Assembly (NCBI RefSeq): GCF_044324875.1
Contig: NZ_CP172185.1
Length of the DNA: 64,000 nucleotides
Source: Escherichia coli
GTDB lineage: Bacteria > Pseudomonadota > Gammaproteobacteria > Enterobacterales > Enterobacteriaceae
Strand: one strand, 5' to 3'
Part shown: piece by piece, positions 5,176 to 56,466 of the stretch
Numbering within the stretch: position 1 is the stretch's first letter
Layout: each line of letters begins with the position of its first letter
The notes under the pieces: generated by a model
Databases searched by the model: none
Told to the model about the DNA's origin: nothing
The model's input: only the letters and a program-made list of their open reading frames with translations
Translations under genes and position numbers: made by a program

Positions 5176-6366
5176 ATGAGTGTACGTTTAGTGTTAGCCA
5201 AAGGGCGCGAAAAATCATTACTTCGTCGCCATCCGTGGATCTTTTCCGGGGCCGTTGCCCGCATGGAAGGTAAAGCCAGCCTCGGGGAAACCATCAATAT
5301 TGTTGATCATCAGGGAAAATGGTTAGCACGCGGCGCTTATTCGCCAGCTTCGCAAATCCGGGCGCGCGTCTGGACGTTTGACCCGAATGAATCTATCGAC
5401 ATTGCTTTTTTTACCCGCCGTTTGCAACAAGCGCAAAAATGGCGTGACTGGCTGGCGCAAAAAGATGGCCTCGACAGCTATCGTTTAATCGCCGGAGAAT
5501 CTGATGGCCTGCCGGGTATTACTATCGATCGTTTCGGTAATTTTCTGGTGCTGCAACTACTGAGTGCTGGCGCAGAGTATCAGCGCGCGGCATTAATTAG
5601 CGCCCTGCAAACGCTGTACCCGGAATGTGCGATTTACGATCGCAGCGATGTTGCGGTACGTAAAAAAGAAGGGATGGAGCTGACCCAGGGCCCCGTCACC
5701 GGCGAGTTGCCGCCTGCCCTGCTGCCGATTGAAGAACACGGCATGAAGCTGCTGGTGGATATTCAGCACGGACACAAAACGGGCTACTACCTGGATCAGC
5801 GTGATAGCCGCCTGGCTACCCGCCGCTACGTTGAAAATAAACGCGTACTGAACTGTTTCTCCTATACCGGTGGTTTCGCCGTATCGGCACTGATGGGCGG
5901 TTGCAGCCAGGTTGTCAGCGTTGATACCTCCTAGGAAGCCCTGGATATTGCACGGCAGAACGTTGAGCTGAACAAACTGGATCTGAGCAAGGCTGAGTTT
6001 GTCCGTGATGATGTCTTTAAATTGCTGCGTACCTATCGCGATCGCGGTGAAAAATTTGACGTTATCGTGATGGACCCGCCGAAGTTTGTTGAGAATAAAA
6101 GCCAGTTGATGGGCGCGTGTCGTGGCTATAAAGATATCAACATGCTGGCGATTCAGTTGCTGAATGAAGGCGGTATTCTCCTGACTTTCTCCTGTTCTGG
6201 CCTGATGACCAGCGATTTATTTCAGAAAATCATCGCAGATGCCGCAATTGATGCCGGTCGTGATGTACAATTTATAGAGCAGTTCCGTCAGGCAGCCGAT
6301 CATCCGGTGATCGCTACCTATCCGGAAGGGCTATATCTGAAAGGGTTTGCCTGTCGCGTCATGTAA
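5176..6366 (+). pseudogene. rlmI: 23S rRNA m5C1962 methyltransferase RlmI, interrupted by an in-frame TAG at 5932..5934
   Basis: ORFs 5176..5934 and 6022..6366 share one frame; spliced length is 396 codons, the RlmI length; translation continues ...[21 protein letters not shown]... with no other stop. Confidence 0.85.
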
Positions 6367-6741
<375 letters not shown>

Positions 6742-6754
6742 TCCCTGAACAAAT

Positions 6755-6790
6755 CCCCGGAAGGTTTTTGCCTTCCGGGGATTTTTTATT
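6755..6790. terminator. Bidirectional rho-independent terminator between hspQ and yccU
   Basis: CCCCGGAAGG-tttttg-CCTTCCGGGG flanked by A-run and T-run. Confidence 0.7.
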
Positions 6791-16188: not shown

Positions 16189-16900
16189 GTGCACAGAAAA
16201 CCCCCAGCTAGGCTGGGGGTTCCGGAAAGCTTTCAGCTTTGAGCCAGTTATTAAAACCCCTTTTGATTTGTTAAAACACCTTGCGGTCTGGCAACTGCAA
16301 GTGTCAAACAAGAAATCAAAAGGGGGTCCCAATGGGGAACGAAAAGAGCTTAGCGCACACCCGATGGAACTGTAAATATCACATAGTATTTGCGCCAAAA
16401 TACCGAAGACAGGTGTTCTACAGAGAGAAGCGTAGAGCAATAGGCTGTATTTTGAGAAAGCTGTGTGAGTGGAAAAGTGTACGGATTCTGGAAGCTGAAT
16501 GCTGTGCAGATCATATCCATATGCTTGTGGAGATCCCGCCCAAAATGAGCGTATCAGGCTTTATGGGATATCTGAAAGGGAAAAGCAGTCTGATGCTTTA
16601 CGAGCAGTTTGGTGATTTGAAATTCAAATACAGGAACAGGGAGTTCTGGTGCAGAGGGTATTACGTCGATACGGTGGGTAAGAACACGGCGAAGATACAG
16701 GATTACATAAAGCACCAGCTTGAAGAGGATAAAATGGGAGAGCAGTTATCGATTCCCTATCCGGGCAGCCCGTTTACGGGCCGTAAGTAACGAAGTTGGA
16801 TGCAAATGTCAGATCGTGTGCGCCTGTTAGGGCGCGGCTGGTAAGAGAGCCTTATAGGCGCATTTGAAAAACCTCCGGCTATGCCGGAGGATATTTATTC
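16189..16900 (+). mobile_element. IS200-family insertion sequence, copy 1 (about 712 bp)
   Basis: Identical to the copies at 48635..49346 and 55755..56466; left end GTGCACAGAAAACCCCCAGCTAGGCTGGGGG hairpin, right end CCTCCGGCTATGCCGGAGGATATTTATTC; single tnpA; no target duplication. Confidence 0.9.
16332..16790 (+). CDS. tnpA: IS200 transposase TnpA (Y1 HUH family)
   Basis: 152-aa product MGNEKSLAHTRWNCKYHIVFAPKYRR...HIHMLVEIPP, with the HxH motif and catalytic Tyr region typical of IS200/IS605 TnpA. Confidence 0.92.
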   Translation: MGNEKSLAHTRWNCKYHIVFAPKYRRQVFYREKRRAIGCILRKLCEWKSVRILEAECCADHIHMLVEIPPKMSVSGFMGYLKGKSSLMLYEQFGDLKFKYRNREFWCRGYYVDTVGKNTAKIQDYIKHQLEEDKMGEQLSIPYPGSPFTGRK

Positions 16901-31101: not shown

Positions 31102-31211
31102 GAACTCTCCTGGATTCCCGGTGTGCAAACCGGGGGCGTATTATGTGCGAGTTCGGACCAAAAGGGAATTGACCTGTGGCAAAAAAAGCGCAAACGTTTT
31201 CCGAGCCTGTT

Positions 31212-31922
31212 TCAGAACAGATTTTGCTCCTTCTTTGCACTCAACCCGCCGTAATCATTTATCGTCCGCCAGGAGACATGACACGGTGCTATTGCCTGAC
31301 ACCAGCTTGTCTGACGCTGGCTTTTAGGTGGCACAACTCCCGCATTACTTAACGCTTTACCATTTACGCTCACCTGAATCAGGTTAATGTAGTAAGGCGT
31401 TGGGTTAGTGAGTTGTACACCCTGCGAATTCCGTGTCCAGCGTAATTGTTGATAAGCTTCCAGCGGGTCGCCCGGCAAACCTTCGGGTCGCCAGAACAGT
31501 TTAAATACCGAGCGCATCGCCACTTTTACGCTCTGATTTTCAACTTTGCCGGATGGCACGCTGGCAATGCTTAACTCAAATAGCGTTTCGCGATCCACAG
31601 GCAAAATGTCGCTTTCCGTTCTCAGCAAGCGCAACGTGCCTGTAGTACCGGGCTTCAGGAGAACAAGTGGTGGAGCGACCAGTAGTGGTGCTGACCCTGT
31701 CGATGCTTCGCCCCCGGCCCAACGCGTTGGGCGATTGATTTTACTGTTAATAAGCCAGGATTCCTGACTGGTATTAGTCAGTGAAATAGATATCGATTCT
31801 CTGTCTGCCGGGAAGATAAATCGCGTTCCGCCAACCACCACTCCTGCCTGCAATTCCCCCGCCACCAGCAGCGATAAAACGGCAAAAATCGCGAGCGTCA
31901 ATCTGTTCCACGTATTAGTCAT
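31212..31922 (-). CDS. ycbF: Periplasmic fimbrial chaperone (PapD-like)
   Basis: Start taken at MTNTWNRLTLAIFAVLSLL with signal peptide; chaperone-family fold motifs. Confidence 0.8.
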   Translation of the reverse strand: MTNTWNRLTLAIFAVLSLLVAGELQAGVVVGGTRFIFPADRESISISLTNTSQESWLINSKINRPTRWAGGEASTGSAPLLVAPPLVLLKPGTTGTLRLLRTESDILPVDRETLFELSIASVPSGKVENQSVKVAMRSVFKLFWRPEGLPGDPLEAYQQLRWTRNSQGVQLTNPTPYYINLIQVSVNGKALSNAGVVPPKSQRQTSWCQAIAPCHVSWRTINDYGGLSAKKEQNLF

Positions 31923-32430
31923 AATGAAGTACAAATGTCGCGCTGGCATTCACTTTACCCGACTGCACATCGCTATTAACAGGTCGCAATTGCGCATAAA
32001 AAGTTAATGGCACCTTACCGCTATGTAGGCTGTAGTCTTTACTCGCCTGGTTAAGCGGAATCAATATTTTCGCATCATCCAGAATCGCAATTGCCAGCCC
32101 GCTGGCTGCATCCGTACCACTTTCAATGGACAGCATTTCGCTCTGCATTCCGTCGGGTGTTCCTGAAAAGGTAACGTCAACCGTGCTGACATCTGTTCCG
32201 CAATCCTGCAAATTAATGATGAAAGATTTCTCCGGGCCATAGTTCCCATGAGAAAAACGTGTCAGCGAGACATCGCCTAACTGCACATTGATTTGCTTGC
32301 TATCCTGTGCCAGCACGCATGTATTACGGCGAAACGATCCGCTGATGTTGACCGTGCCATCATGGGCAAATAGCTCACAACTCCCCGTTAAACCCAGTAA
32401 GCACAGAATCCAGATTATCCGTTTCAACAT
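31915..32430 (-). CDS. ycbV: Fimbrial-like protein
   Basis: Start taken at MLKRIIWILCLLGLTG; fimbrial subunit-like, C-terminal ATFVLHYD. Confidence 0.78.
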   Translation of the reverse strand: MLKRIIWILCLLGLTGSCELFAHDGTVNISGSFRRNTCVLAQDSKQINVQLGDVSLTRFSHGNYGPEKSFIINLQDCGTDVSTVDVTFSGTPDGMQSEMLSIESGTDAASGLAIAILDDAKILIPLNQASKDYSLHSGKVPLTFYAQLRPVNSDVQSGKVNASATFVLHYD

Positions 32431-32437
32431 CACTCCT

Positions 32438-32980
32438 TCACTGGTAAACCAGATCAAAATAGAGAACCGCCGTCGCATTACCGCCCGTAGCCCCCGCCTT
32501 TGTGGACTTATAGCGAAGTTGATATTTGAGTGTGTTATCCCCCGCTTTTAAGGGCGTAAGAGGCTGGACCTGATTGAGCGGGATTTCTTGCTGACTTTGC
32601 GCATCAAGAATTTGCACGGCAATCCCCGTTGCCATACCACCGCTTCCGCCTGTGTCAGTTAGTTTGAGTAGTGTCGGCGCAAGGGTGTCAGCCTCGCCGC
32701 TAAAAAGGACGTCCGCGCCAGTAATACCAGCGGCACAACCGGTGATATCGATATTCAAATCAGCAGCTGTGCTTACGGTATTCGCAGCCTGAAAATCACT
32801 GATATTAAAATCGCCAATATGAATATTTTGTAATGCGCTTTTGGTGGCAACATCACAGCCCTGATCGACCACATTACCATAAATATGCATACTGACTTGT
32901 TCAGGCCCAGCCATCCCGACATGGGTGTTAAGAAAGCTAAAGAACAAGATAACGTACTGAAATATTGTTTTTTTCTTCAT
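32438..32980 (-). CDS. ycbU: Fimbrial-like protein
   Basis: 180-aa ORF MKKKTIFQYVILFFSF with signal peptide; fimbrial subunit-like, C-terminal AVLYFDLVYQ. Confidence 0.8.
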   Translation of the reverse strand: MKKKTIFQYVILFFSFLNTHVGMAGPEQVSMHIYGNVVDQGCDVATKSALQNIHIGDFNISDFQAANTVSTAADLNIDITGCAAGITGADVLFSGEADTLAPTLLKLTDTGGSGGMATGIAVQILDAQSQQEIPLNQVQPLTPLKAGDNTLKYQLRYKSTKAGATGGNATAVLYFDLVYQ

Positions 32981-32991
32981 ACGTTCACGCG

Positions 32992-36653
<3,662 letters not shown>

Positions 36654-36677
36654 CTCGCTCTCTTAACTGAAGACGGC

Positions 36678-37379
36678 TTACGATTTACAGTTGAGTTGCG
36701 GCGTTTCCGCCCCGTAGTCATTGATGGTTCGGTACGTTACGCTACTGTTTTGAGCACCCTTTGGCAGAGGGAATTGGTATTTATCAAAGGGGGAAATCAT
36801 TTGATTTTTAACTACTTTTCCACCTATTTTCAGGTCTGTCAGGGTAATGAAATAAGGTGTTGGGTTACTGACCGTAACCATGTCAGCTGACGAAGTGCAA
36901 CGCAGTTTCGCCGGAGCCTCGGCTAAGGGATACGCTAAACCTTTTGGTCGCCAGAAAAGTTTGATGACGCTTTGTGTGGCAATCTTCAGGGTATTGCCTT
37001 CTTCCCGCTTCGTTGTTGAAGGGACTGCCCGTACGCTGGTGAAGAAAAGAGTTTCTCTGTCTTTCGCCAACGGCGCGCCAATGTACATAATGCGTAACAA
37101 ATTCTCGTTTGCCGGATTCAGCACAAATAGCGGTGGTGTAATAATAAAGTCCGCTGATTTTTTATTATCTGGTGTCATCACCCATGACTGAATAAGATAA
37201 GGAACATCCGGACTGGTGTTACGTACACCCAGTGAAATTTGCTCTTCACCTTCCGAATAAACAAGACGTGTTGCTGCAAGTCCGACCCCACCTTTACCTG
37301 CCGCCCATGTGAACGAACAGCTGAGTAATATTGCCGTTAAACTTACGGTCACAATTCCCTTTGTTATGCAAGTTTTCAT
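36678..37379 (-). CDS. elfD: Periplasmic fimbrial chaperone
   Basis: 233-aa ORF with signal peptide; PapD-like. Confidence 0.85.
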   Translation of the reverse strand: MKTCITKGIVTVSLTAILLSCSFTWAAGKGGVGLAATRLVYSEGEEQISLGVRNTSPDVPYLIQSWVMTPDNKKSADFIITPPLFVLNPANENLLRIMYIGAPLAKDRETLFFTSVRAVPSTTKREEGNTLKIATQSVIKLFWRPKGLAYPLAEAPAKLRCTSSADMVTVSNPTPYFITLTDLKIGGKVVKNQMISPFDKYQFPLPKGAQNSSVTYRTINDYGAETPQLNCKS

Positions 37380-37461
37380 AAATAGTCACTCTTAAAAAAT
37401 ATGGATATCCCCTCCAGAACACTGGAGGGGGACTAATTAATAAAACAATTAATGTGTTCTA

Positions 37462-38004
37462 TTAATAATAGTTAATATGAAAATCCGTTACCGCATTAAC
37501 ATTACCTGAAGTCGCTTTACCCGTAGCGATATAATCAACTTTAAAAGTCACTGTTTGCTCAGCGGAATCCGCTAACTGAATATTCGACGTTTCAATACCG
37601 GGAGTTACCGATGTAGAACCATCTGGCAGATACATTTGTAGAGCAACATTCGTCGCTGCATCGGTGGAAGCCTGGTTGGCAAATGCTGTAGGTTGCACTC
37701 CGTCAGCCGTACCACTGAAGGTAAAAGTCGCATTTTTAGTTACAGTAACATCACAGCCTTCTAAGGCAATTGGTACATCAGTTTTAACGCCAGAGACTGC
37801 ACCATTAGTTTGCAACTTGGTGGCGCTGACATTTGGCAATGTGACTACTGAATCTTTGGTCGCAGCTACCAGCGAACAAGCTGGAGCAATGACTTTACCA
37901 TTAAATGTTACTTTGCCATCCGTGATAGCATTATCATCAGCCGCCATAGCACTGGACGTTGCACATACCACAGTTATAAACGCCGTCAATACACTTTTTT
38001 TCAT
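37462..38004 (-). CDS. elfA: Major fimbrial subunit
   Basis: Start at MKKSVLTAFITVVCATSSAMA signal peptide; C-terminal TDFHINYY beta-strand. Confidence 0.85.
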   Translation of the reverse strand: MKKSVLTAFITVVCATSSAMAADDNAITDGKVTFNGKVIAPACSLVAATKDSVVTLPNVSATKLQTNGAVSGVKTDVPIALEGCDVTVTKNATFTFSGTADGVQPTAFANQASTDAATNVALQMYLPDGSTSVTPGIETSNIQLADSAEQTVTFKVDYIATGKATSGNVNAVTDFHINYY

Positions 38005-48634: not shown

Positions 48635-49346
48635 GTGCACAGAAAACCCCCAGCTAGGCTGGGGGTTCCGGAAAGCTTTCAGCTTTGAGCCAGTTATTAA
48701 AACCCCTTTTGATTTGTTAAAACACCTTGCGGTCTGGCAACTGCAAGTGTCAAACAAGAAATCAAAAGGGGGTCCCAATGGGGAACGAAAAGAGCTTAGC
48801 GCACACCCGATGGAACTGTAAATATCACATAGTATTTGCGCCAAAATACCGAAGACAGGTGTTCTACAGAGAGAAGCGTAGAGCAATAGGCTGTATTTTG
48901 AGAAAGCTGTGTGAGTGGAAAAGTGTACGGATTCTGGAAGCTGAATGCTGTGCAGATCATATCCATATGCTTGTGGAGATCCCGCCCAAAATGAGCGTAT
49001 CAGGCTTTATGGGATATCTGAAAGGGAAAAGCAGTCTGATGCTTTACGAGCAGTTTGGTGATTTGAAATTCAAATACAGGAACAGGGAGTTCTGGTGCAG
49101 AGGGTATTACGTCGATACGGTGGGTAAGAACACGGCGAAGATACAGGATTACATAAAGCACCAGCTTGAAGAGGATAAAATGGGAGAGCAGTTATCGATT
49201 CCCTATCCGGGCAGCCCGTTTACGGGCCGTAAGTAACGAAGTTGGATGCAAATGTCAGATCGTGTGCGCCTGTTAGGGCGCGGCTGGTAAGAGAGCCTTA
49301 TAGGCGCATTTGAAAAACCTCCGGCTATGCCGGAGGATATTTATTC
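48635..49346 (+). mobile_element. IS200-family insertion sequence, copy 2, inside the ompF upstream regulatory region
   Basis: Identical to copy 1; left end abuts AATCCGCA-ttcttatt-GCGGATT hairpin plus T-run. Confidence 0.9.
48778..49236 (+). CDS. tnpA: IS200 transposase TnpA
   Basis: Protein identical to the copy-1 TnpA. Confidence 0.92.
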   Translation: MGNEKSLAHTRWNCKYHIVFAPKYRRQVFYREKRRAIGCILRKLCEWKSVRILEAECCADHIHMLVEIPPKMSVSGFMGYLKGKSSLMLYEQFGDLKFKYRNREFWCRGYYVDTVGKNTAKIQDYIKHQLEEDKMGEQLSIPYPGSPFTGRK

Positions 49347-55754: not shown

Positions 55755-56466
55755 GAATAAATATCCTCCGGCATAGCCGGAGGTTTTTCAAATGCGCCTA
55801 TAAGGCTCTCTTACCAGCCGCGCCCTAACAGGCGCACACGATCTGACATTTGCATCCAACTTCGTTACTTACGGCCCGTAAACGGGCTGCCCGGATAGGG
55901 AATCGATAACTGCTCTCCCATTTTATCCTCTTCAAGCTGGTGCTTTATGTAATCCTGTATCTTCGCCGTGTTCTTACCCACCGTATCGACGTAATACCCT
56001 CTGCACCAGAACTCCCTGTTCCTGTATTTGAATTTCAAATCACCAAACTGCTCGTAAAGCATCAGACTGCTTTTCCCTTTCAGATATCCCATAAAGCCTG
56101 ATACGCTCATTTTGGGCGGGATCTCCACAAGCATATGGATATGATCTGCACAGCATTCAGCTTCCAGAATCCGTACACTTTTCCACTCACACAGCTTTCT
56201 CAAAATACAGCCTATTGCTCTACGCTTCTCTCTGTAGAACACCTGTCTTCGGTATTTTGGCGCAAATACTATGTGATATTTACAGTTCCATCGGGTGTGC
56301 GCTAAGCTCTTTTCGTTCCCCATTGGGACCCCCTTTTGATTTCTTGTTTGACACTTGCAGTTGCCAGACCGCAAGGTGTTTTAACAAATCAAAAGGGGTT
56401 TTAATAACTGGCTCAAAGCTGAAAGCTTTCCGGAACCCCCAGCCTAGCTGGGGGTTTTCTGTGCAC
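55755..56466 (-). mobile_element. IS200-family insertion sequence, copy 3 (inverted)
   Basis: Reverse complement identical to copies 1 and 2; left end abuts the mukB terminator T-run. Confidence 0.9.
55865..56323 (-). CDS. tnpA: IS200 transposase TnpA
   Basis: Protein identical to the copy-1 and copy-2 TnpA. Confidence 0.92.
   Translation of the reverse strand: MGNEKSLAHTRWNCKYHIVFAPKYRRQVFYREKRRAIGCILRKLCEWKSVRILEAECCADHIHMLVEIPPKMSVSGFMGYLKGKSSLMLYEQFGDLKFKYRNREFWCRGYYVDTVGKNTAKIQDYIKHQLEEDKMGEQLSIPYPGSPFTGRK

Follow-up and report, generated by a model that had tools for sequence, protein, structure and literature searches.

The closest described relative of the locus considered here is RlmI, also named YccW, which Purta et al. 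(2008) report as the 23S rRNA m5C1962 methyltransferase of Escherichia coli. For the lesion that the locus carries, the nearest precedent is found in the amber hotspots of lacI. According to Coulondre, Miller, Farabaugh and Gilbert (1978), as reviewed in PMC12606429, these hotspots arise when the inner cytosine of a CCAGG site is converted to thymine by deamination of 5-methylcytosine. Vsr very-short-patch repair normally guards Dcm sites of this type (PMC2715241). A further point of comparison is offered by rlmI pseudogenes in other lineages. Shigella sonnei and E. coli NCTC/FDAARGOS_944 have a TAG at codon 253, as does the DNA studied here, while ExPEC XM, PU-1, LHM10-1, Z1323MEC0001 and SA53-3 have an amber codon at position 245 or 310. 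The backgrounds of these pseudogenes differ by 20-36 positions in 1,191 bp, and S. sonnei adds a second nonsense mutation, W92*. Equivalent alleles are already labelled 'internal stop' in RefSeq, and a search of the literature on rlmI or yccW together with Shigella or pseudogenes found no paper describing these nonsense alleles.

The locus lies at 5176..6366 on the plus strand of the window, the whole 64-kb stretch of E. coli DNA that was analysed. It shares with E. coli RlmI/YccW a common location, the local synteny, a length of 396 codons and an architecture consisting of PUA_3 and Methyltrans_SAM, but its reading frame is broken at codon 253 and the full enzyme is not encodable. The preliminary description of this DNA had identified the gene as rlmI, and comparison with the known protein bears this out. 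When Gln253 is restored, residues 1-396 align with E. coli YccW/RlmI (PDB 3C0K) at E = 4e-266, with five substitutions relative to the K-12 protein, namely V22I, D41N, S71N, S80T and S152A; the pair of ORFs at this locus is no coincidence of reading frames. This full-length similarity is accompanied by the yccX-rlmI-hspQ synteny and the PGAP name rlmI, as expected of an RlmI ortholog. On the restored protein, Pfam places PUA_3 at residues 6-68 and Methyltrans_SAM at residues 111-357, with generic class I methyltransferase models matching residues ~217-352; the PUA-like N-terminus and the class I SAM-dependent methyltransferase domain that characterize RlmI are both present.

The gene order around the locus (hyaAB, tRNA-Ser, yccA, tusE, yccX, rlmI, hspQ, yccU, csgI, mgsA and helD) is colinear with that of annotated E. 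coli. Of the other genes in the window, 40 were compared with E. coli MEW and all are full length and free of stops, and the surroundings are not a decaying, Shigella-like region. An interpretation of the window as Shigella DNA with an IS1 insertion was considered because the C-terminal remnant of rlmI, a 114-aa product identical to proteins on hundreds of contigs, carries the name 'Shigella sonnei' and because S. sonnei loci have IS1 nearby. It was rejected: 25 differences separate the rlmI of S. sonnei from that of the window, the element inserted at 16.2-16.9 kb is IS200C, and the 40 genes compared are intact. Three IS200C copies were detected in the 64 kb with the Rfam model STnc490 (16199-16322 and 48645-48768 on the plus strand, 56333-56456 on the minus strand), and they adjoin tnpA ORFs at 16281..16790, 48727..49236 and 55865..56374, respectively. 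The copy between ompA and matP is not found in E. coli MEW, while the copy between asnS and ompF is common to both. The IS200C copies probably explain why short-read assemblies of the window lineage fragment into contigs of 10-36 kb. Between pyrD and ssuE, a fimbrial operon of the elf/ycb type occupies ~31200-38000 on the minus strand and includes an 866-aa ORF of usher size; in E. coli MEW, pyrD is followed directly by ssuE without a fimbrial operon there.

Translation of 5176..6366 yields 396 codons and a terminal TAA, and the sole internal stop is the TAG at 5932..5934 of the plus strand, which occupies codon 253. Two ORFs on the plus strand result. The first, at 5176..5934, encodes a truncated product of 252 aa that comprises the PUA-like domain, the central domain and a partial Rossmann fold extending to VVSVDTS. 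The second, at 6022..6366, is the C-terminal remnant of 114 aa, which begins at a TTG at 6022 in the rlmI frame; the two ORF starts are separated by 846 nucleotides, or 3 x 282, and are therefore in-frame. When read from the ATG at 6070, the remnant is 98 aa long. The preliminary description had proposed that the two ORFs share one frame and together give the length of RlmI, that a lone in-frame TAG truncates the protein at residue 252 of 396, and that the stop falls inside the methyltransferase domain. All of this holds: the combined frame has 396 codons, the stop is codon 253 and leaves 252 residues, and it lies within the span assigned to Methyltrans_SAM. A gene for RlmI is expected to have an uninterrupted frame through the catalytic domain. 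Here that frame fails at codon 253 and residues 253-396 are absent from the main product, so the locus is classed as an rlmI pseudogene and not as a functional member of the family.

The structural consequences of the stop can be anticipated in some detail. It comes immediately after VVSVDTS, at the end of the second beta-strand of the SAM-binding Rossmann fold, and 144 C-terminal residues are lost. Among the lost motifs are DPPK (motif IV; residues 300-303, nucleotides 6073-6084) and the cysteine-containing TFSCS (residues 337-341, nucleotides 6184-6198). Because both motifs are missing, and in view of general knowledge of class I RNA m5C methyltransferases, the truncated RlmI is predicted to be catalytically dead, and C1962 of 23S rRNA would be left unmethylated. 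The remnant ORFs, whether of 114 or 98 aa, are without the SAM-binding half of the enzyme and would be expected to be non-functional alone. With regard to expression, Rfam reported no RNA element within rlmI, and when the surroundings of the gene were scanned for promoters and terminators, the hspQ terminator at 6751-6784 was the only feature to exceed shuffled expectation. The same scan found no terminator-like site between rlmI and hspQ, and some polarity on hspQ is therefore possible.

The preliminary description had deduced that the TAG derived from CAG, and this ancestral codon can now be observed directly. The reference set consisted of 5,426 complete RefSeq E. coli genomes, the window lineage not being among them, and megablast found rlmI in essentially all of these. 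Alignment with other E. coli rlmI alleles identifies the ancestral codon as CAG (Gln). The closest alleles are those of strain C4 (5 differences), PCN033 (6 differences) and strain 042 (13 differences), each with CAG at codon 253, and C stands at 5932 in every intact allele fetched. Against the closest alleles, only one further non-synonymous change is present, D41N (GAT to AAT at 5296 of the window), which is private to the window lineage among the alleles compared. Relaxed constraint after the stop arose could account for D41N, although as a single change it is anecdotal.

Three origins for the TAG had been left side by side in the preliminary description: a genuine strain polymorphism, a laboratory lesion and a sequencing error. 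Public data select the first of these. An exact look-up of the 252-aa product gave no match, gene callers beginning instead at the GTG at 5191; the 247-aa product of that start is present on ~10 public contigs, including those of GCA_958308375.1 and of the SRR8502383 and SRR21142071 assemblies. In these three independent datasets, rlmI is 100% identical to that of the window. Over 15.9 kb, GCA_958308375.1 and SRR8502383 share the only 2 SNPs that set them apart from the window (positions 390 and 15800), and therefore at least two genotypes of the window lineage carry the TAG. With at least two independently sequenced genotypes sharing it, a sequencing error is excluded and a laboratory lesion of the one-off kind is very unlikely.

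Since the stop falls at a CCAGG sequence, the possibility that the T at 5932 is a basecalling or sequencing miscall at a methylated site, with CAG as the true codon, merits closer attention. DNA modification is a recognised cause of nanopore errors, and several long-read-style assemblies have errors at precisely this CCWGG site and at others in rlmI, as well as showing homopolymer indels. The errors in those assemblies, however, are deletions or A-to-C changes and not clean C-to-T substitutions, and the window is without indels against its relatives. Moreover, the variant is not confined to one assembly or platform. The same T appears in one NCBI and two SRA-derived assemblies of the lineage, short-contig assemblies included, in the finished S. 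sonnei record HE616528.1 and in thousands of S. sonnei assembly blocks. A miscall is thus scarcely credible. As regards the long-read-style public assemblies themselves (n = 10 loci), deletions or miscalls fall exactly at the CCWGG sites of rlmI (5791/2, 5909 and 5932/3) and homopolymer indels at 5406/7 and 5662. These indels shred rlmI into false fragments, with many spurious short 'methyltransferase' proteins in the databases. Base modification disturbs nanopore basecalling, and assembly errors centred on CCWGG, including those at 5932, fit methylation of these sites in other E. coli.

A laboratory lesion in a domesticated strain, possibly one with an amber suppressor such as supE, would be in keeping with the frequency of amber mutations in laboratory K-12 derivatives, and the suppressor survey is limited to one tRNA gene, the only one in the window. 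The provenance of the lineage nonetheless argues strongly against such an origin. Its closest relatives come from natural sources, namely cow, duck, pig and human. In its first 25 kb the window reaches no more than ~99.1% identity with any complete RefSeq genome, and the rlmI allele is 25 positions away from that of S. sonnei, which is itself no more than 2 substitutions from the commonest E. coli alleles. In addition, several independent datasets carry the allele and there is a 2-SNP difference among them. A laboratory lesion is regarded as highly improbable on these grounds; the window lineage is a naturally occurring clone of E. coli with poor coverage among finished genomes.

Turning to the origin of the mutation, the stop lies in a former Dcm site at 5931..5935 that now reads CTAGG and was ancestrally CCAGG. 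Position 5932 is the inner cytosine, so that C5932 to T is a G:C-to-A:T change at the inner C of CCWGG, the change expected at a Dcm hotspot. There are six CCWGG sites in rlmI, and at three of them an inner C-to-T change creates a stop (codons 171, 245 and 253). Besides the site at codon 253, these are an intact CCAGG at 5907..5911, where the change gives an amber at codon 245, and a third intact CCAGG at 5685..5689, where it gives an amber at codon 171. Given this Dcm context of C5932, deamination of 5-methylcytosine escaping Vsr is the most likely origin of the stop. In this scheme, the 5-methylcytosine at C5932 would have deaminated spontaneously to thymine, the resulting mismatch would have been missed by Vsr very-short-patch repair, and the C-to-T change would then have turned Gln253 (CAG) into amber (TAG).

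The likeness to lacI is close with respect to both the inner-C change of CAG to TAG at CCAGG and its recurrence at the same site. The lacI cases, however, came from laboratory selection in a single K-12 strain, whereas the rlmI cases are natural alleles fixed in wild lineages. A further difference from lacI is that we infer the methylation of C5932 by Dcm in the ancestor; dcm and vsr both lie outside the 64-kb window. C-to-T is the commonest spontaneous transition at unmethylated cytosines as well, and a caveat to the Dcm origin is that two nonsense alleles from non-Dcm sites, Q310* and Q365*, are also C-to-T changes. Even so, we conclude with considerable confidence that rlmI in the window lineage is an inherited nonsense pseudogene produced by one C-to-T change at a Dcm hotspot. 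The hotspot, the recurrence of the stop in other lineages including S. sonnei and the 'internal stop' flags in RefSeq all go beyond what the preliminary description had recognised.

The same T at 5932 is found in S. sonnei, in an allele that otherwise differs from that of the window at 25 positions, including 5847 and 5940 on either side of the stop. Apart from its two stops, each a single substitution, the S. sonnei allele matches the commonest E. coli alleles. The second of these stops, W92* (TGG to TGA at 5451), is at a non-Dcm site and was seen in 8 loci. A 128-aa fragment ending at the TAG is indexed in 2,818 collection blocks, indicating that Q253* is fixed or nearly so in S. sonnei. A related allele in CP026834.1 has Q253* without W92*, which suggests that Q253* came first. 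In S. sonnei and some E. coli, gene callers have turned the fragments of these alleles into short proteins named 'SAM-dependent methyltransferase'. Q253* is also present in E. coli NCTC/FDAARGOS_944, where PGAP annotates a pseudogene with an 'internal stop'. The nearest intact allele to that of FDAARGOS_944 is from FDAARGOS_943; the two differ only at 5683 and 5932 and both have the 5906-A marker, situated 26 bp before the stop, which argues for a local origin of Q253* in FDAARGOS_944. The nearby csgI of FDAARGOS_944 is annotated as frameshifted, so that its neighbourhood has more than one lesion. With independence judged from gene haplotypes only, Q253* appears to have arisen on at least three backgrounds, the window included.

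These shared stops could in principle descend from one mutation if short tracts of gene conversion had carried the TAG into FDAARGOS_944, S. sonnei and the window lineage. Recombination is frequent in E. coli, and the local haplotypes of the window and FDAARGOS_944 are identical from 5797 to 6032 save for 5906. However, each TAG carrier has its nearest intact allele only 2-5 bases away, with the carrier's own flanking markers. The 5906-A of FDAARGOS_944 is present in FDAARGOS_943, and the window and S. sonnei differ at 5847 and 5940. On account of these carrier-specific markers, any imported tract would have to be at most 92 bp in S. sonnei and at most 126 bp in FDAARGOS_944. The independent occurrence of Q245* on three backgrounds further indicates that such sites mutate repeatedly. 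A single origin is therefore considered unlikely, and repeated mutation at the Dcm site is preferred.

The frequency of these alleles was assessed with 31-mers centred on the mutant base, a design in which every 28-base megablast seed must include that base. The Q253* 31-mer in the window background matched 1 of the 5,426 complete E. coli genomes (FDAARGOS_944), and that in the S. sonnei background matched none of them. If Dcm sites are hotspots, an amber would be predicted at the sister site at codon 245. The corresponding Q245* 31-mer (CCAGG to CTAGG at 5908) was found in four genomes, ExPEC XM, PU-1, LHM10-1 and Z1323MEC0001, all of which are annotated as pseudogenes with an 'internal stop' and which together represent three distinct backgrounds. 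In ExPEC XM and PU-1, codon 253 is CAC (His) and the Dcm site there is destroyed; these genomes have the amber at codon 245 instead.

The screen was then widened to 309 31-mers that represent all 145 single-base nonsense changes in 11 backgrounds. They were run in shuffled order against the 5,426 complete genomes and junction words were checked. Matches were obtained in seven genomes, with Q245* in four, Q253* in one, Q310* in one (SA53-3) and Q365* in one (VTB97432v), the sensitivity of the screen depending on flanking polymorphism. Five of the seven matching genomes have the stop at a Dcm site, and no mutant was detected in this screen for the Dcm-site amber at codon 171. When counted as allelic events, whose independence is taken from the 1.2-kb gene haplotype and not from genome phylogeny, four of six fall at Dcm sites, which make up 3 of 37 transition targets (binomial P ~6e-4). 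Exclusion of codon 253 as a guard against ascertainment bias leaves three of five events on 2 of 36 targets (P ~1.6e-3). Recurrence is therefore in excess over non-Dcm sites, with at least three backgrounds each for Q253* and Q245* as judged by haplotype.

Whether an amber codon abolishes function also depends on how it is decoded. The window contains a single tRNA gene, which encodes an ordinary tRNA-Ser (anticodon UGA), and the window lineage presumably has no suppressor. That the lineage is of natural provenance, and that S. sonnei has gained a second stop, both speak against maintained function. Nor is the pattern among alleles that of programmed readthrough or suppression: codon 253 is a sense codon in all intact alleles fetched, the TAG 31-mer occurs in 1 of 5,426 genomes, and S. 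sonnei has gained W92*. A leaky UAG is a subtler proposal. Amber codons can be read through by near-cognate tRNA-Gln, and insertion of Gln at this UAG would restore the ancestral protein exactly. As RlmI is a catalytic enzyme, even small amounts could matter and C1962 might stay partly methylated. Yet no recoding signal is evident, UAG followed by G is not a notably leaky context, and the second stop of S. sonnei lies upstream, so that no function is preserved there. Partial activity through a leaky stop is consequently given little credence, and an inactive pseudogene is the favoured interpretation.

Loss of rlmI has mild effects where it has been studied. No assembly defect or growth arrest is seen at 20 or 37 degrees, although growth is slowed under the load of protein overexpression (PMC7056703). 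Under kanamycin, particles of ~45S build up (PMC11894153). A slight growth defect and reduced biofilm are among the effects cited in PMC10117853, which also reports lower fitness of Vibrio cholerae lacking rlmI under sub-MIC aminoglycosides, ciprofloxacin and triclosan. With phenotypes this mild, a clone can retain such alleles, and they can become fixed under weak selection, as in S. sonnei. A slightly deleterious effect fits both the low frequency of the nonsense alleles screened, found in 7 of 5,426 E. coli genomes, and the fixation of Q253* in S. sonnei.

The recurrence of these alleles also admits a reading in which loss of RlmI is adaptive in some niches, through ribosome assembly and aminoglycoside tolerance or through host restriction, and in which selection adds to mutation bias. 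Nonsense alleles have arisen repeatedly, Q253* is fixed along with a second stop in S. sonnei, and c-di-GMP reportedly raises tolerance of kanamycin by inhibiting RlmI (PMC11894153). Several observations weigh against this reading. The screened alleles are confined to the few complete genomes noted above, and their matches cluster at Dcm sites, a pattern expected from mutation bias but not from selection for loss. Knockouts grow slightly worse and are less fit under the sub-MIC drugs already mentioned. S. sonnei, for its part, accumulates pseudogenes generally. Adaptive loss is therefore thought improbable, and mutation bias continues to be the preferred account. A more specific form of the idea holds that loss of m5C1962 has been favoured repeatedly in S. 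sonnei, the window clone and several animal-associated E. coli, and that the Dcm sites of rlmI serve as pre-set 'fragile' switches through which loss is readily attained. It is highly speculative and is viewed as quite unlikely; if true, natural adaptation, for example to aminoglycoside or host stress, would tie together DNA methylation, mutation bias and ribosome modification.

The interrupted rlmI is a real pseudogene of an ordinary kind, in a well-characterised and dispensable housekeeping gene, and its proposed mutational origin, for which the evidence is good though indirect, is a textbook one. The recurrence of stops at two Dcm sites of rlmI is a small new observation and does not constitute a new kind of system. 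The locus nevertheless provides a clean natural case, in wild populations, of the hotspot mechanism described for lacI in 1978, with two CCAGG sites mutated on at least three backgrounds each. For annotators, the short 'SAM-dependent methyltransferase' ORFs at this locus are best read as fragments of rlmI, and CCWGG sites call for care as places where real mutations and nanopore artefacts coincide. For the biology of these bacteria, the finding predicts ribosomes without m5C1962 in the window lineage and in all S. sonnei, a prediction that bears on work concerning RlmI, ribosome assembly and aminoglycoside tolerance.
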